Assembly (NCBI RefSeq): GCF_006345805.1
Contig: NC_042999.1
Coordinates: forward strand, 126,790,001 to 126,854,000
DNA: 64,000 nucleotides
DNA from: Octopus sinensis
Taxonomy: Eukaryota
Reading direction: 5' to 3'
Shown one piece after another: positions 13,015 through 58,289 of this stretch. Position 1 is the first letter of the stretch. Every line of letters begins with the position of its first letter. Both the position numbers and the translations under genes were made by a program. The notes under the pieces were generated by a model. The model worked only from the letters and a program-made list of their open reading frames with translations, was not told the DNA's origin and ran no database searches.

Positions 13015-14165
13015 CTCCAAAATGGTAAAATTACCAGCAATATTTCCTTTTTCAAAGTGGGCAACAATACATCATCTATTAAATATCATCCATTATTTAT
13101 CGACCAGTCAGTCTCATTAGATGTATCTCCTAATCAATGGAGTCCTGTGTAAGAAAGACACTCTAGAACTTCTGGAATTCTAACAACCTCATTGGACCCT
13201 CACAATTTGAATTTATCGCTAATTCCAACTGCTGTGGCGAATTCATTGAATTTCTTGATGACCTACTTGAATCACATATGGTAGCTCAAGGGTGGATGCT
13301 AACTATCTCAATTTCACCAAAACCTTTAATTCTGTGCTATGCAAATGACTCTCTGCAAGAGCTAGTCTTTGTATCTGACCAAGTCCTTCATTCTTGGTTG
13401 GAAAGAAGTTGTCACAGTGCTGGGACAACATTCTGCACTCTGTGCCATGGCATCTGGAATTCTGCTGGGATCTATTCTTGGTCTCTTGTTGTTTGCTACA
13501 TATATATTAATGAAATGAATGCCAACCTGAAAATGTGTTACATGTTAAAACATGCAGAAATGTCAAGCTGTACCTTAAGATGAAAAGAACAGATCCTATA
13601 CACTACAGACCTTTTTTGCAACAAAAACTCGAGCATAATGCAGCAATGGGTTGCCAAATAGGAACTCAAGCTGGCTGTAGACAAGTGCATTACTATACAT
13701 TTTGTGGAGGTGGAGATCTGGAATTTACCTAGTCCTTTCACAATATCAACGTTAAGAGGTCTGCTGGACAACATGACCTAGGCATTATTGTAAACAATGA
13801 TCAACATTGGACAGACCATATTTCTAAAATTGCCTTAGTGTTACTCAATGAGACCATTGTCAGTCATTCACTGACTATCTATTTAAAGCTATATATGGCT
13901 GTGGTGCAGTCACAGTTTGCATCACCAGTCATTAGTCCTCCAACTTGTTCAGACTATTGATCTACTGGAAGCTGTCTAGAGAAAAGAAATCTGATGAATA
14001 CTCTCCATCTGTCACTTTACATATCTTGAATGTCTTGCTTCTCTGGGCATTGGCATCCTGAAGTTTCAACATCTAGCAGCTGACTTGGTAGAAACCCACA
14101 AAATTATCCTCCTTTCTTTTCGAATTCAATATCTTTACCACCTGTGAACACACTTACAAAATAAA
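13015..14165 (+). mobile_element. Old decayed CR1-type LINE RT, same family as 50056-53057
   Basis: GTCACAGTGCTGGGACAACATTC (VTVLGQHS), AATGCCAACCTGAAA, AAAAGAACAGATCCT (KRTDP) and AAGCTGGCTGTAGACAAGTG match the 50-51 kb RT. Confidence 0.8.
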
Positions 14166-28086: not shown

Positions 28087-29354
28087 CATGTTTGTTCATT
28101 CAGCAGAAGTTATATGATTTAAGTCTTATTTATTTTTTCTTTGTATTTTCATTTGATACTATATGTTTGTTCTTAATATCAGTTGATATATGTTTACACA
28201 CTTTTATCAGGTGATATTCTATATTTATCCACAATATCAGTTAGTATATATATTTACACAACTTTATTGGTTAATATTTTATGTTTACCCACTACGTAAG
28301 TTGATATTGTATTTGGACACATTTATCAGTTGATTTTGTATGGTTACATATCTTTATTATTTATATAATAATTCAACTATTAATATATAATTTCATTCAT
28401 ATGCTTTATGTATGCAAGGCTCGATCAATTGATCAAATGGTTGATCAATGAATCTACTGATCAATATATGTCAGTGTACATGTATGTATGCGTATAAGGT
28501 AATATATATATATATATATTTATTTATACTTGGAAGAAGGTGAGGGAATTACAGTCATGGATTAAAAACAAAAACATCTCAGTGGGTATAAATACAAACC
28601 AAACACTCTGATTGATAAATACTGTTCTCTGTACATCTTAGCATGTGTGTAAGCAAATTCAAACACACATACACCATAAGGAAAGAAACATTATAAATGG
28701 AATATTTATGAATGCCAAATCTTCCAGCTCAAATATAACTGAGTTCAAATATAACTCACAACTCATCTGGGTGAAATAGGAAATTACATAGGGAATTCAT
28801 ATCAAAATTTTGAAAAATGAACGGAAGCTTTTGACACAGAAAAGACAAGAACACTTTACTTGGGGAATTTGAAAGACTAGAGACCAGTTAGTTAAATATA
28901 GGCATTCATTTTAATTCTATAGATGAAAACAATCAAGTTAGGTTAGCTTTTAGCTTCAGCAATGGTATAGAATGACAGTTCTTCTATTTGACAGTGTGTA
29001 CAGTATTACAGGTAGCTTCTTAGGAAATTAAATGTTCAGATACATCAGGATATGTAAATAGCTCCTTCATATCACATTTATAGTCTTTCACTTAGAGTTG
29101 AGGTACATTGATAAATTGTTAATATAAATGAATGAAGATATTCATGTGTGGCACTAAAGTAAGGCATTAAAGTAAATCAAAGTGAAAGAAAGTGGGCAAA
29201 GGTCAAACTACATCTGAATGGTATGAGGCAAATCTCAGTGATATAATTAGTATATTGTCTTATATAGATTTATATCTAATTAGAAAGTATCATTATAGGA
29301 AAACAGAGTAAGCTATGGACACATAAGAGGTGCAGCAATATCAAAGTAGGGCTA

Positions 29355-30520
29355 ACTGGGAAGATAGTTTTTGTTTGTGGCAAATGTTCGGGTGTTATAA
29401 ACACTGAAAATGTGCAAAGAACAGCTTCTATCACATTCCAGGGAGAAAAACTACATTTAGTTGATAGCTTCTGTTACCTACAGGACCAAGTCAGTAGCGG
29501 GGTGGATGCTCTGAAAATGTAGCTGCTAGAATAAGAATAGCCTGGGCAAAGTTCAGAGAGCTCCTACCTCTGCTGGCGACAAAGGACCTTTTGCTCAGAG
29601 TAATAGGTAGACTGTATGACGCATGTGTATGAACAGCCATGCTACATGGCAGTGAAACATGGGCTGTGACTGCTGAGGACATGCGTAAGCTTGCAAGGAA
29701 TGAAACCAATATGCTCTGCTGGATGTGTAATGTTAGTGTGCATACACAACAGAGTGTAAGCACCCCGAGAGAAAAGTTGGATTTCAGAAGCATCAGGTGT
29801 AGTGTGCAAGAGAGACGTTTGCGTTGGTATGGTCATGTGTTGTGAATGAATGAGGACAGCTGTGTGAAAATGTGTCACACCCTATCAGTTGAGGGAAACC
29901 TGTGGAAGAGGTAGACCCAGGAAGACCTGAGATGAGGTGGTGAAGCATGACCTTCGAACATTGGGCCTTACTGAGGCGATGACTAGTGACTGAGACCTTT
30001 GGAGATATGCTGTGCTTGAGTGAGACCATAGCCTGTGGCCTATGCCAGTGGGTGTAATCAGTTCACTTAAGAATACCCCTCATTCATTGACCTATTGAGG
30101 CAAGTGAAATCAAAATCAAAATCAAAATTGCTGGCGTGGCCAATGACAGTACTGCCGATTGGCACTCGTGCCAGTGGAACGTTAAAAGTACATCCGAGCA
30201 TGGGGTGTAACCAGCCCACTTATGAGTACCTCTCATTCACTGGACAATAAACTTTGCTTGCGAAGACCTATTGAGGCAAGCGAAATTAAATCAAAATTGC
30301 TGATGTGGCTGATGACAGTACCGTCTGATTGGCATTTGTGCTGGTGGAATGCTAAAAGCACATCCGAGCATGATTGTTGCCAGGGCCACGGATTGGCTCC
30401 CATGCCGGTGGCATGTAAAATGCACCATTCGAGCTTGATCGTTGCCAGTGTTACTTTACCGGCACATGTGCCTGTGGCACATGAAATATAACATTCGAGT
30501 GTAATCATGGTCAGTGCAAC
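29355..30520 (+). mobile_element. RTE LINE 3' fragment with part of the 3' UTR
   Basis: FVCGKC..VDSFCYL..RIRIAWAKFRELLPLL..MLHGSETWAVTAEDMRKL..RLRWYGHV. Confidence 0.9.
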
Positions 30521-31177: not shown

Positions 31178-32400
31178 TAGAAAACAGATTCCATCACACT
31201 CCAGGGGGAGAAACTAGAAGTAGTTGATAGTTTCCGCTACCTGGGTGACCAAGTTAGTAGTGGAGGTGGATGCACAGAGAGTATCACCACTAGAATACGA
31301 ATAGCCTGGGCAAAGTTCAGAAAGCTTCTACCCCTACTGGCGACAAAGGGTCTCTCGCTCAGAGCGAAAGGTAGATTGTATGATGCATGTGTGCGAACTG
31401 CCATGCTTCACGGTAGTGAAACATGGGCTGTGACTGCAGAGGACATGCGTAGACTTGAAAGAAATGAAGCTAGCATGATCCGCTGGATGTGTAATGTCAG
31501 TGTGCATGCATGACAGAGTGTAAGCACCCTAAGAGAAATGCTGGATATAAGAAGCATCAGATGTGGTGTGCAAGAGCGACGCTTGCGATGGTATGGTCAT
31601 GTACTGCGGATGGATGAGGAGAGATGTGTGAAGAAGTGCCACTCCCAAACAGTTGAAGATATCAGGGGGAGAGGTAGACCCAGGAATACATGGGATGAGG
31701 TAGTCAAGCATGACCTCAGAGCGTTGGGCCTCACTGAGGCAATGGCAAAGGACCGAGATCTCTGGAGATATGCTGTGACTGCAAAGACCCGGGCTGCTTC
31801 CTGCATCAGTTCTGCATAGCCCCTGCCCATTCAAAGTACCCTGGATCCCAGAACGTCCTGCTGTGCTTGAGAAGGCCTGTTGAGTCAAGTACATGAACAT
31901 GAACGTCGAAATAAATATCAATGGAAATAGTAGTTGTGATGCCTGTGCCGGTGGCACATAAAAAGCACTATCCGAACGTGGCCGATGCCAGCACCGCCCC
32001 GACTGGCTTCTGTGCCGGTGGCACATAAAAAGCACCATTTGAACGTGGCCGATGCCAGCGCCATTCCGACTGGCTTCTGTGCCGGTGGCACATGAAAAGC
32101 ACCATCCGAATGTTGCCAGCACCGCCTTTGCTGGCTTCCGTGCCACTGGCATGTTAAAAGCTCCAACCGATTGTGGCCAATGCCGGACCCCCCCTGGCAC
32201 CTGTGCAGGTGGCACGTAAAAAGCACCCACTACACTCACGGAGTGGTTGGCGTTAGAAAGGGCATCCAGCCGTAGAAACTCTGCCAGATCAGACTGGAGC
32301 CTGGAGCAGTCCCTGGCTTCCCAGACCCCGGTCGAACCGTCCAACCCGTGCTAGCACGGAAAACGGACGTTAAACGATGATGATGATGATGATGATGATG
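31178..32400 (+). mobile_element. RTE LINE, young 5'-truncated copy with 67-bp 3' UTR repeats and (GAT)n tail
   Basis: LEVVDSFRYLGD..MLHGSETW..RLRWYGHVLRMDEERCVKK..RGRGRPR; highly similar to 55117-57780. Confidence 0.95.
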
Positions 32401-50055: not shown

Positions 50056-53000
50056 ATAATAATAATAATAATAATAATTGTGTACAGTGCTCAGGTGCAC
50101 TACAACTCATCTAAAGTGTATATATAATCAGGTGAAGTTTCGGCGGATTTCGGAAAGCATGAGGGCCTTAAAAGATGCAGTGTCATGGCAGTCAACAACT
50201 GACGCAGGCAGTTTATTCCATGCTTCAGCAACTCTGAGCGTGAAAAAATGTTTCCAAAAGTCATGGGAGCTGTATTGTTTTCTGACTTTGTAGGCATGTC
50301 CACGTGTGTTAGACACATGGAGATAAAAAGGTGTTCAGTGTTGTTGTTGGTGAGGTGGTTGATAACTTTGTGGGTGTTTACCAAGTCCGTCGCCAAACGC
50401 CGGAGCTTCAGTGAATCCATGCCTAGGGAAACAAGGCGCTCAGAATATGGTAGGTGTCTGATGGAGGGTATGCGTTTGGTTGCACGTCTCTGGACAGATT
50501 CCAGGAGGTCAATGTTCTGTGCAAGATAGGGGTTCCAAACTGATGATGCGAATTCCAAGTGTGGTCGTACCATAGCTGTATACAGTTTTAAATAGATGGC
50601 TGGAGAGCGGCTAACAAAAGACCTGCTGAGTGATGCCAAGACACCCTCGGCCTTCCTGACAATCTTAGAGATATGCTTTGACCAACGCAGATCACTGCTG
50701 ACAGTGATGCCTAGGTCACGCTCGCAAGAGGATTTCTTGATATCAGTGTTGTGGAGGGAGTATGTGAACGCAGGGTTTTTTCTCCCAAAATGCATGGTGG
50801 TACACTTGTCCACAGCCAGTTTCAGTTGCCAGTCTGTGATCCATTGCTGCATTGTGTCTAGGTCTGATTGCAGGAAAGAGTTGTAGACATCAGGATCTGT
50901 CCTCTTGATTTCAAGGTACAGCTTGATGTCGTCTGCATATTTCAATACTGTGGCATTCTTTAAATTGGCATCTATGTCGTTAATGTATGCCACAAACAAG
51001 AGGGGGCCAAGGACAGATCCCTGTGGTACACCCGATGACATCTCATATGGTGTAGAGTGCTGTCCTAGAACTGTGACTACCTCCTTTCGGCTGAGGATGA
51101 AGGATTTCAACCAGTTAAAAAGGTCATCCCCCACACCCATTGCAGGGAGTTTCACCATAAGCCTTTTGTGTGGCACAGAGTTGAAAGCCTTAGCAAAGTC
51201 AAGGTAGACAACATCCACCCATGAGCCACTGTCAGTAATCTGAGTAATGTCCTCAAGGAACTCGACAAGCTGGTCACTGCAGCTGGAGTTAGGGACAAAT
51301 CCATATTGTGAGGGTCGGATGAGACTGTGAGAGCTCCAGAAGTTCCAGAGTGTTCTCTGACACACGATTCCATCAGTTTTGCAATACAGCTAGTGAGACT
51401 GACTGGGCGATAGTTGACAGGTGATGTGCGGTCGCCCTTTTTGAACAGAGGAATGACACTGGCAGTTTTCCACTGCTCTGGAGTAGCACCATTGTTGAGA
51501 CAGTACTGGAAGAAAATAGAAAGCTGGTGTAAAAGGAAGTGCCTGCCACGTTTGAGAAGCAGGTATGTAACTCCATCGAGACCAGGGGAGGCATAGTTGC
51601 GCTTATTTTGAAGGTGACGTCACAGCATTGCAGGTGTAAATTCCATAGTTGTTATGGAGTTTGCTGTTAGTGATGGTGAAGATGGTACATTTTGACTTTC
51701 AACAGTGAATATGTTTGCATAGCACTCGGCAATGAGTTCTGCGCATTCCTTGGGGTCGTCAGTGATCTGGTTTGTGTGAGGGTTGCGAAGAGGGCCCACT
51801 GGAGAGTGAGGTCTCTGCTTTGAGTGCACATATTTCCAGAAAACCTTGCTGTCAGGATTGGCTGCTATGCACTGTTCAAATTCAAGCACTGCTTTTTTTG
51901 TCACTTGCTTGAGATGGTTGGAGGATTTATTCCGCTTCTTCCTGTTGGTGTCTGATTTATGCAACCTGTATTCCCGTTCAGCAGTCCGACGTTCCCTCCT
52001 GGCAAGTCGGACCGCTGAAGTTTCCCAAATTGCCCTTTTGGGGCGGTTCTTCTTTTTTTGTTTACGTGGCACTGATGCTGCACATGCTGCCCATATTGAG
52101 TCCAGGATACTCTGGAGTATAGTATTCACATCTCCAGAGTTGTAGAATTCACGCCAGTTTGGGTGCTGTAGTTCAGTGTGGTACAGGTTCCAATCTGCTC
52201 TCTTCCAATCGAAGGAAGCAGATTGGAGATGGTTCAGGTTTTTGTTGCCCGCAAGAGCCAGATTGGCGATGATCATAGCATGATCAGAGTCACCTAGAGG
52301 TTCCTCCATAGTGCAATTGATAACCGCTTCAGAAGTTGTGGTGAAGAGCAGGTCCAAGGTGTTGTCGCCTCTTGTTGGAGAGGTGACTACTTGTGACCAG
52401 TTTGAGTCCAGCACAAGCTCAACAAAATCGTTTGCACTCTGTGGCCAATGGAAGGTCTCCCAATCGATCTCAGGATGATTGAAATCGCCTGCAATAAACA
52501 CATAAGTGGCTGTTTTCCTGGCAGCAGCTCGGAGGACATTGCAAAGCTGTGTGTCCCGATGGTAACTTGGGGGACGATAAACAACGCCAAGCAGGAGTGT
52601 TGACATGGTCATACGCACGTCACAGAAAAAAACTTCTTCTTGTGATTCGTTCAAATCGGCACAAGGAATTACCAAAAAATTTGAACGAACGTAGACCATC
52701 ACACCACCACCACGGCGGTTAGTGCGGTCCTTACGGAAGAGGTTGTACCCCGTAATGTTGAAAACCCCATCACAGAGTAAGGAATGCGCCCATGTTTCCG
52801 TGACAGTGATGAAGTCAGGGTCAACACTTCTGACGTAGGCGTTGAACAAATGTATTTTGTTGCATAAACTGCGAGCATTTAAGGACAACAATTTGTACCC
52901 TGCTCGCAGTTTATGATGGTGTGTAGAGGATGGCAGGTTGTTCTGGCTTAGTTTCCCTGAGTTGCTGTAGTCTTTTTAGTTATTGTGGGTAGAGAGCACT

Positions 53001-53057
53001 CAGACCAGCTGGTATCTCTCTTCCACGTTTCAGCAGTCTTGACAAATCTCCAGATTT
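50056..53057 (-). mobile_element. CR1-type LINE, 5'-truncated in ORF1, near-complete ORF2, (ATT)n tail
   Basis: APE motifs LNARS, TETW, RKDR..RGGGV, YRPP, GDFN, LDLL, SDH; RT motifs NYRPVSLT, QYGF, YLDFAKAF, GVPQGSVLGPLLF, YADD; 3' hairpin GTGC-ACCTGA-GCAC. Confidence 0.95.
50128..52957 (-). pseudogene. LINE ORF2 (APE-RT), broken by one TGA (51620) and two frameshifts (~51355, ~50325)
   Basis: ORF-track pieces 51620-52891, 50100-51365 and 50128-50316 join into one ORF2. Confidence 0.9.
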
Positions 53058-53295
53058 GGCACCTTGGGCAAGTGTGTTCTACCCTACCCCTGGGCTAACC
53101 AAAGTCTTTTGAGTGGATTTGGTAGATGGAGACTGAAAGAAACATATGGTATGCGTGATAAGGAGTTCACTTCTCAACCACATTGTTGTAGGTTCAGTTC
53201 CACTGTGTAGTACCTTGGGTAAGTGTCTACTGCTATAGTCCTGGGTTGACCACACCTGTGAGTAGATTTGGTAGATGGAAACTGAAAGAATCCTA
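53058..53295 (+). mobile_element. Two SINE family B 5' fragments
   Basis: CCTTGGG(C/T)AAGTGT..GATTTGGTAGATGGA occurs twice. Confidence 0.75.
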
Positions 53296-54997: not shown

Positions 54998-55116
54998 ATC
55001 ACCCCATGGATTTATATGGATAACACCATACAAAATTCTGGTGCATCTAACTCAAGTAGCATATTCATTTGAATCTAAATTTTGCTGAACCTATATTTAT
55101 ATATATGTATATATAT

Positions 55117-57775
55117 CATCATCATCATCATCATCATCATCGTTTAACATCCGTTTTCCGCGCTAGCACGGGTTGGACGGTTCGACCGGGGTCTGGGGAG
55201 CCAGGGGCTGCCCCAGGCTCCAGTCTGATCTGGCAGTGTTTCTACAGCTGGATGCCCTTCCTAACGCCAACCACTCCGCGAGTGTAGTGGGTGCTTTTTA
55301 TGTGCCACCTGCACAGGTGCCAGAGGGGTCTGGCATCGGCCACGATCGGTTGGTGCTTTTTTTATGTGCCACCGGCACCGAAGCCAGTCAAGGCGGTGCT
55401 GGCATTGGCCATGTTCGGATGGTGCTTTTTATGTGCCACCGGCACAGAAGCCATTCGAGGCAGGCTTGGCATCGGTCACGTTCGGATGGTGCTTTTTATG
55501 TGCCACCGGCACAGAAGCCAGTGGAGGCTGCACTGGCAACGGCCACGTTCGGATGGTGCTTTTTATGTGTCACCGGCACAGGTATCACAACTACTGTTTC
55601 TATTGATATTTGGTTCGATGTTCATGTACATGCACTTGACTCAACAGGTCTCCTCAAGCACAGCGAGATGTTCCGGGATCCCATGATCGGTTGGTGCTTT
55701 TTATGTGCCACTGGCACAGAATCCAGTCGAGGCGGTGCTGGCGTCGGCCACGTTCGGATGGTGCTTTTTATGTGCCACCAGCACAGAAGCCAGTCGGGGC
55801 GGTGCTGGCATCGGCCACGTTCGGATGGTGCTTTTTATGTGCCACTGGCACAGAAGCCATTCGAGGCGGGGTTGGCATCGGTCACGTTCGGATGGTGCTT
55901 TTTATGTGCCACCGGCACAGAAGCCAGTGGAGGCTGCACTGGCGACGGCCATGTTCAGATAGTGCTTTTTATGTGTCACCGGTACAGGTATCACAGCTAC
56001 TGTTTCTATTGATATTTGGTTCGATGTTCATGTATATGCACTTGACTCGACAGGTCTCCTCAAGCACAGCGAGATGTTCCAGGATCCAAGGTACTTTGAA
56101 TGGGCAGGGGGTATGCGGAACTGGTGCCGGAAGCATCCCGGGTCTTAGTAGTCACAGCACATCTCCAGAGATCTCGGTCCTTCGCCATTGCCTCAGTGAG
56201 GCCCAACGCTCTGAGGTCATGCTTGACTACCTCATCCCATGTCTTCCTGGGTCTACCTCTCCCCCTGATTCCTTCAACTGTTCGGGAGTGGCACTGCCGT
56301 GAAGCATGGCAGTTCGCACACATGCATCATACAATCTACCTTTCACTCTGAGTGAGAGACCCTTTGTCGCCAGTAGGGGTAGGAGCTTTCTAAACTTTGC
56401 CCAGGCTATTCGTATTCTAGTGGTGACACTCTCTGAGCATCCACCGCCACTACTAACTTGGTCACCCAGGTAGCAGAAACTATCAACTACTTCTAGTTTC
56501 TTCCCCTGGAGTGTGATGGAATCTGTTTTTTGAGTATCTGTGGTGTCTATTGTCCCTGTGCATCTGCCGCACATGAAAGCTATCTTATCAGTTAATTTCC
56601 CTTTGATGTTGCTGCACCTCTTATGCGTCCATAGCTTACACTGGGTGCATCTTATGGAGTTTCTACCTACACCTTTCCTACAGCTCGAGCAGGGCCACCT
56701 GCCCGATGGGGTGTGTGCTGAGTTTGCCTTTCTGCATACTATAACTTTGGTCTTCGCTACATTTACTCTAAGGCCCTTAGATTCTAACCCTTGTTTCCAC
56801 ACCCGAAATTTCTTTTTTAGTTCCGGTAGTGATTCTGCTATGAGGGCCAGGTCATCAGCATAGAGAAGCTCCCAGGGGCAACCTGTTTTGAATTCCTCTG
56901 TTATTGCCTGGAGGACTATGATGAATAAAAGGGGACTGAGGGCTGAGCCCTGGTGTACACCTACTTCTACCCGGAATTCTTCACTATATTCGTTGCCAAT
57001 CCTAACCTTGCTGACAGCCTCTCTGTATAGAGCCTGTACAGCCCTTATTAGCCATTCGTCATTCAACAGTTTCTGCATCGACCACCAGATAAGGGATCGG
57101 GGAACCCTGTCAAAGGCTTTCTCCAAGTCCACAAAAGCTATGTAGAGGGGTTTATCTTTAGCTAGGTACTTCTCCTGCAGTTGTCGGACCAGGAATATAG
57201 CATCAGTGGTGCTTCTACCTGGCACAAAACCGAACTGCATCTCATCTAAGCAAATTCTCTCCCTAATGAGATGGGTTATGACCCTCTCTGTGGTCTTCAT
57301 CACCTGATCCAACAGTTTAATACCCCTGTAGTTATTTCTATCTAGAGTATCACCCTTACCCTTGTAGCAGTTGACTATGGTGCTGCTACGCCAGTCATTG
57401 GGTATGACTCCATTATGAACTACCTGGTTAACAATACGGGTGACTAGGCCATAGCCTGCATAACCAGCTGTTTTAAGCATCTCAGCAGTGATTCCTGATG
57501 GGCCAGGGGCTTTACCCGGTTTCATATCCTTAATTGCTTTATCTACTAGGGAGCTGTCTATTCGGATAGCTGGTCCCTCTACTGGGTCAACATTTGGCAG
57601 GCTCTCCTCCTCCCATTCATTCTCCACATTCAGCAGTCTTTCATAATGGCTTCTCCAAGCCTCTTTCTTTTCACCAACATTAAAGGCAAGTGCCCCATCA
57701 TCCATGCGGACACATTTCTCTCCTGTAACATCACTATTTTCTCTCACACACTGTCTAGTAATACGAAATACTTCA

Positions 57776-57780
<5 letters not shown>
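55117..57780 (-). mobile_element. RTE LINE, young, 5'-truncated, flanked by (TA)n
   Basis: (GAT)n tail at 55117-55140, 67-bp UTR repeats, long RT ORF. Confidence 0.95.
56227..57780 (-). pseudogene. RTE reverse transcriptase with embedded C4HC3 finger; no endonuclease; 220-bp C-terminal deletion
   Basis: GKAPG, NYRGIKLL, QFGF, FVDLEKAFD, GVHQGSALSPLLF, LYADD (56851-56862), YLG. Confidence 0.93.
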
Positions 57781-57815
<35 letters not shown>

Positions 57816-58289
57816 TCTATTTCTGTACCTATTATATCCATCTATCATTATATATATATTATATCATCAAGTAATATATTACTACTTACAGAATATAACT
57901 GGTTAGAACGTTGCCATCAGTTTTGCATTGAATATTATTACTAGACAAGATTGAGGATCTTCAGACATGATAGCCAGAAGCACATAGCCTCTTTTATACT
58001 GCAGGTATATAGACTCTGAGATTATTCCTAAATAATATTTTTCACTCTTTCATTCCACCTTTTTCTGCCACCATTCTGCCAACATTGAGTCTATGTAACT
58101 CCTGTGTGCTTGGCAATATTTGGTATAAAAGCAGCAGTAGCATTCTAACCAGCTATGCCATAACCGGCACTGTATTTCTTGATGATATACAAAAAATACA
58201 TCTATTCTATTACTTATATTGAGTGTTTTTATTTCTAATTTATGGACAACTAACTGATCACATATATTACATGATCAAGTAACTAACCG

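Follow-up and report, generated by a model that had tools for sequence, protein, structure and literature searches.

How ORF2 is translated from a two-gene LINE RNA is a long-open question, and the models which were studied use reinitiation or stop-start coupling. In SART1 of the silkworm ORF2 is reached by stop-start coupling at UAAUG. Slippage as such is well known, e.g. PEG10 uses the heptamer G_GGA_AAC. The RNA of mammalian L1 is bicistronic, the ORF2 product is rare and, according to an excerpt of a review, ORF2 initiation is independent of an AUG (PMC5009743). The same excerpt sets out the heptamer rule and the spacer of 5-9 nt, lists the most shift-prone heptamers, among them those described below, and mentions reported frameshifting in the gag of HeT-A (PMC5009743). 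For G_GAU_UUU of pea enation mosaic virus (PEMV) it reports that a stop codon 3 nt downstream is needed for shifting, independent of 3' structure (PMC5009743). In excerpts of two further papers the ATG of ORF2 was needed in Zorro3 (PMC1965478), and +1 frameshifting, reinitiation or readthrough were suggested for Paramecium elements (PMC5405496). Finally, the legend of a review states that translation of ORF2 requires a -1 frameshift in TRE5-A and TRE3-A of Dictyostelium (PMC5911963).

Here we examined a stretch of 64,000 nucleotides (the window) from a 2.7 Gb animal genome. Its minus strand carries a 5'-truncated copy of a young family of CR1-type LINEs, termed family A, with the truncation point at 53058 (Table 1). 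The junction of the two frames reads ACT CAG GGA AAC TAA, i.e. a heptamer of the X_XXY_YYZ kind that is in phase with the zero frame and is followed by an open -1 frame. An earlier note, made from these letters alone, had proposed that ORF2 is produced from this site as an ORF1-ORF2 fusion. Its positions for the heptamer, the ORF1 stop, the TAA closing the -1 frame and the first ATG were all confirmed on the minus strand. Upstream of the endonuclease there was no AUG at the ORF1 stop or immediately behind it. The Asn codon of the LNARS motif is at 52879-52877, and the first ATG comes after both LNARS and TETW as had been claimed; by Pfam the endonuclease starts at residue 31 of the ORF2 frame. 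In-phase heptamers have a background of 0.002-0.006 per codon in ORF1 and ORF2 of related elements, and the chance of one in the 9-codon overlap, taken alone, is about 0.02-0.05.

Table 1. Features of the family A copy in the window (positions of the window; RNA features are given in the same numbering).
Feature	Position	Strand	Basis or remark
5'-truncated copy of CR1-type LINE family A	50056..53058	-	full copy L032 is 99.5% identical along 3005 nt
3' remnant of ORF1, last 36 codons and stop, ending ..TTATQGN*	52948..53058	-	
TAA closing the ORF2 (-1) frame upstream; frames overlap by 28 nt	52976..52978	-	
Slippery heptamer G_GGA_AAC, in phase with ORF1, at which the -1 shift is predicted	52951..52957	-	sequence and conservation
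UAA that ends ORF1, immediately behind the heptamer; inferred candidate stimulator	52948..52950	-	spacing of 0 or 3 nt also in many relatives
Open part of ORF2 with linker, APE endonuclease (from Asn 52879) and tether; its first ATG is at 52699	51623..52975	-	
Remaining ORF2 (RT and C-terminal domain), broken in the window copy	50128..51622	-	
Short 3' UTR and (ATT)n tail	50056..50127	-	
Strong RNA hairpin, 15-bp perfect lower stem, specific for family A	52863..52915	-	folding vs shuffles

Compared with L032 the window copy is damaged by a stop at 51622-51620 and by one-base gaps near 51353 and 50325. A DNA search of the host genome with a query containing the junction gave 350 candidates; in all 40 candidates which were scored the junction was 100% conserved, i.e. 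in at least 39 copies besides the one in the window. The 30 loci that were fetched were identical over 299 nt across the junction, and the truncation points varied among the copies. An assembly error or the decay of a single copy was excluded because the same junction is present in these 30 loci and in intact copies. Among 20 longer copies of family A the two frames overlapped by 28 nt in 20/20, ORF2 was open for >900 codons in six, and the first Met was residue 93 in 17; the other three break earlier. Since the arrangement is shared by all 20, long-open copies included, it is a property of the family and not decay. None had an AUG before the APE domain and autonomous-looking copies were not fused in frame; the earlier note had named the presence of such an AUG or of fused frames as damaging to its proposal. 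Its reading of the upstream frame as ORF1 also held: full-length copies carry a real ORF of 377-512 aa, counted from the first Met (about 400 aa).

The full copy L032 has an ORF1 of 397 aa with a Cys-rich N terminus and a polyQ tract, and an ORF2 of 948 aa. In ORF2 Pfam recognized an APE endonuclease (PF03372/PF14529) followed by a reverse transcriptase (PF00078) only; RNase H was absent. A short 3' UTR is followed by an (ATT)n microsatellite. ORF1 of family A had no match in the Pfam scan though its N terminus is Cys-rich; for its C-terminal part the ESM Atlas gave a best value of 0.88, which is a lead only. ORF1s of the CR1 clade are known to carry a PHD finger and/or an esterase. In 12 ORF1s of relatives that were scanned with Pfam, a GDSL esterase was present in seven, a PHD in three and both in one. 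Thus, APE plus RT without RNase H, the (ATT)n tail and the esterase/PHD ORF1s of the relatives fit the CR1 clade; the name is assigned provisionally from these features, and the tree of APE domains was built from 34 unnamed sequences. Three side observations follow. At L032:4315-4530 ORF1 contains a polyglutamine/QNQPQPE repeat of variable length; the low-complexity repeat found at this place in family B is another one. Contigs of two runs (X3 and X6) fuse the 5' UTR straight to the 3' tail (L032:842 and 5195), which suggests a short non-autonomous derivative. Further, an older CR1-like RT fragment with 66-67% identity to families A and B is located at 13098-14108 of the window.

Searches with distant APE proteins, which are blind to the heptamer, yielded two more families, B as a sister of family A and the far family C; when the own genome was searched with two distant proteins, A and B were the only families to come up. 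We collected 122 sequence-distinct loci, 70 of family A and 52 of family B, of which six were truncated before or in the site. GGGAAAC TAA was intact in 69/69 A loci and 44/47 B loci reaching the site, where about half of the A loci stem from the DNA query containing the site; a small number of the loci are possibly duplicates made by the assembly. Two of the three altered B sites still match X_XXY_YYZ. Between A and B GGGAAACTAA is identical in 10/10 positions and the four bases upstream all differ; the ORF2 proteins are 80% identical, and fourfold sites are 62% identical, 49% in APE. The codon before the heptamer varies (CAG, CTG, TTG, TCG, ATG), always ending in G. At the family level the distance from heptamer to APE is 75 or 78 nt, and all changes are multiples of three. 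No AUG lies between heptamer and APE in either family. In family C (L111, L171-L190; about 36% APE identity) ORF2 is again in -1, and 18/21 loci have no AUG before APE; in L171 the two frames run together. The overlap is 230-260 nt (80-90 codons) and contains two in-phase heptamers, G_GGU_UUU and G_GGU_UUA; given 80-90 codons these two could be there by chance.

Family B also takes part in a composite repeat, in which a 5'-truncated B copy sits inside an RTE-type LINE and was amplified as a unit (at least 10 loci: L067-L071, L074-L077, L081, L101, L264). Most of its copies have one extra G at the slippery site, by which the remnant of ORF1 and ORF2 come to share one frame. We did not count this subfamily as a natural in-frame fusion that would support the proposal, because it is a passenger of the RTE element and most of ORF1 is missing. 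In the window an RTE-type fragment with an open frame of 529 aa is found at 56227-57816 (minus strand), with related pieces at 29308-29774, 31179-32036 and 55114-56295; it matches the RTE half of the composite repeat at 95.8% identity along 1487 nt.

More distant relatives were obtained from metagenome contigs. A first scan with a single protein confirmed 0/87 stretches. A scan with nothing but the APE alignment confirmed 408 relatives, of which the best 80 were taken. The whole APE motif was held by 78 of the 80; these formed 47 clusters at 70%, and one locus per cluster was used. We kept the 27 clusters with an upstream ORF of at least 250 aa and dropped 20, 15 with 100-249 aa and five with shorter ones. 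Viral contigs gave one weak locus which was left out of the analysis. In these families from the best 80 of 408 relatives, ORF2 was in the -1 frame in 27/27. Under the strict rule an in-phase heptamer was located in the overlap in 21/27 (expected 2.3-4.9; wrong phases, 4 and 2). With G_GA allowed, a rule added on the authority of a review after the data had been inspected, it was 26/27 (expected 3.8-6.3; wrong phases, 5 and 6). The 27 families are related, so the significance of these heptamer counts is overstated when they are treated as independent. The sole family without a canonical heptamer, L345 (1433-1511), has the -1 overlap and no AUG. Among the 15 dropped clusters with 100-249 aa, 11 were in -1 and ten of those had a heptamer. 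An in-frame AUG at least five codons before the APE Asn was absent in 22/27 families; 5/27 have one further up. The closest of the metagenome relatives returned among the best 80 of 408, L281 with 60% APE identity, has kept CAG GGA AAC TAG at the homologous end of ORF1; its ORF2 frame opens two codons earlier, and an AUG is located two codons upstream of the APE Asn. Conservation of heptamer and phase, on which the earlier note had made its proposal depend, is thus seen in family B and L281, and as a class of sites in 26/27 distant families.

The ORF2 frame opens at a median of 5 codons before the heptamer, about as expected from the background density of stops; the heptamer was sought within the open stretch, so that only the length of this stretch is a test. 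In 13/26 families the -1 frame is free of stops for 57-70 codons inside ORF1, against a usual frequency there of 0.11 -1 stops per codon. In the APE tree families A, B and L281 group together with a support of 1.0 inside the sample, and the types of heptamer track the subclades. This comparison shows several replacements of the site, with the frame and the class of function kept.

We consider it probable, at roughly 0.8, that ORF2 of this CR1-type LINE is translated by programmed low-level -1 frameshifting at G_GGA_AAC to yield an ORF1-ORF2 fusion. We prefer this reading because ORF2 is in the -1 frame, no AUG is present before residue 93 and the site is conserved; the fusion that the earlier note envisaged gains support from the comparison among families. 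Most ribosomes would terminate at the UAA and release ORF1p of about 400 aa. A ribosome may pause as the stop codon enters the A site, and tRNA-Gly and tRNA-Asn would then re-pair on GGG and AAA. A small share would go on to endonuclease and RT by way of the sequence ..Q-G-N(or K)-L-S-Q-N-N... The predicted fusion has about 1,340 aa (397 + 940 for L032). A low shift rate would set a ratio of many ORF1p to few RT molecules, as gag-pol frameshifting does. This mechanism is likely to apply throughout this CR1 clade, though with heptamers other than this one.

What might stimulate the shift? A stem-loop or pseudoknot 5-9 nt downstream was not found in A (z +0.9) or B (z -1.9). Close to the site family A has only 5-bp helices from +8 on, and family B none. 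The earlier note had seen only the weak CCUGC/GCAGG helix and had overlooked the strong hairpin at 52915-52863. This hairpin has -27.8 kcal/mol, with z -9.1 alone (0/200 shuffles as stable) and z -5.2 in a 91-nt window. It starts 35 nt past the heptamer, as against the usual spacer of 5-9 nt. As a conserved stimulator it was rejected because of this distance and of its absence in B and L281. Its 5' arm equals the reverse complement of the codons for N-A-R-S-L; in B this arm is different, as if family A had gained it by a fold-back. Over 42 sites the 70 nt downstream folded no better than shuffles (mean z -0.36; 8/42 below -2 vs 1-6/42 for flanking windows). Five elements of the esterase type (L290, L298, L313, L327 and L341) do have a clear stem only a few bases downstream. 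In many relatives a stop lies 0-3 nt behind the heptamer, and one of them, L334, has G_GAU_UUU. By analogy the ORF1 stop directly behind the heptamer is the best candidate for a stimulator in family A.

Could ORF2 instead be made as a free protein by AUG-independent reinitiation after the ORF1 stop? A near-cognate CUG or UUG would then be the start, in family A possibly aided by the hairpin. AUG-independent initiation is described for mammalian L1 ORF2 in the excerpt cited above (PMC5009743). Family A has a CUG 19 codons before the Asn, in a good -3 context and 18 nt before the very stable hairpin, and a CUG at -10 and UUG/CUG at -4/-3 are common to A and B. Yet the CUG at -19, kept by the earlier note as an alternative start, reads CAG in B, no near-cognate codon precedes -2 in L281, and the hairpin is missing in B. 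Moreover, reinitiation leaves the invariant -1 frame, the heptamers and the long -1 stretches within ORF1 (57-70 codons free of stops in 13 families) unexplained. We regard it as rather unlikely.

Another possibility is that conserved residues of ORF1, Gly-Asn-stop or Lys-Asn, bring about the heptamer as a by-product, and that ORF2 is produced otherwise, e.g. from an internal entry site or as a truncated protein from an AUG. In its favour, A and B are related, a match of 10/10 has a chance near 0.02 at a nearby identity of about 0.69, and K-N-L is a conserved ORF1 motif. Against this, the synonymous positions of the site are fixed: Lys-Asn was spelled A_AAA_AAC at every listed A/S-K-N site, as against 0/38 background cases in ORF1 and 6/97 in ORF2, where such pairs are almost never written that way. 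In L294, L317 and L335, which have their site elsewhere, the homologous Lys-Asn motif is spelled without a heptamer. Type and position of the heptamer differ among subclades, yet one is nearly always there, and a start at the first AUG would remove catalytic APE motifs. We regard a by-product as highly improbable.

That splicing, editing or polymerase slippage alters the RNA before translation, adding a base or joining an upstream AUG to ORF2, is scarcely probable. In favour of such a change, the extra G of the chimeric subfamily fuses the frames in DNA, so one more base is tolerated there, and A_AAA_AAC sites sit in short A runs. Against it, G_GGA_AAC has no long homopolymer run. Moreover, contigs of four runs (X1, X3, X6 and X7), guessed to be RNA and none on record as such, cross the junction, and neither a joint nor an added or changed base is listed there; as contigs drop rare variants, this speaks weakly against splicing or editing.

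CR1-type elements are abundant in many animal genomes. If frameshifting at the heptamer is correct, the CR1 enzyme would be a fusion which bears the RNA-binding part of ORF1, and the N termini given for ORF2 proteins annotated as 'AUG-less' or truncated would be wrong. In engineered assays of CR1 retrotransposition the junction would have to be retained. Endogenous -1 frameshift cassettes would number in the thousands in animal genomes, and some of them would apparently lack a structural stimulator. Our literature search yielded no report of a slippery site in CR1 elements, with older subscription papers, which may mention one, outside its scope; the excerpts of PMC11835228, PMC7175516 and PMC5006619 contained nothing on CR1 frameshifting. 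Frameshifting by -1, known elsewhere, would operate here in CR1-type LINEs and do so without a near structure.

How does this junction relate to known systems? Like L1 and SART1 the elements examined here would have a bicistronic LINE RNA with a rare ORF2 product. L1 and SART1 have a spacer or a stop-start and an AUG at the start of ORF2, whereas here a -1 overlap is present and no AUG precedes the endonuclease. The earlier note had set well-studied LINEs, with reinitiation or coupling, against frameshifting elements; as a contrast this was too strong, given the statement on TRE5-A and TRE3-A in the review legend (PMC5911963). The latter two share with the CR1-type elements two ORFs and an APE-RT ORF2. 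According to that part of the source a zinc finger closes the ORF2 of TRE5-A and TRE3-A, and tRNA genes are their targets, whereas the present elements are of the animal CR1 type with named heptamers. Retroviral and LTR gag-pol signals and that of PEG10 differ from family A, which has no pseudoknot or stem at 5-9 nt, is a non-LTR element and has no protease to cut the fusion. The family A junction would work like a retroviral-type signal, yet we do not file it as a structure-stimulated type because the 3' structure at 5-9 nt is missing. In this respect it is reminiscent of PEMV, where a stop adjoins the heptamer as well; there, in a plant RNA virus, the stop is at 3 nt, and in family A at 0 nt.
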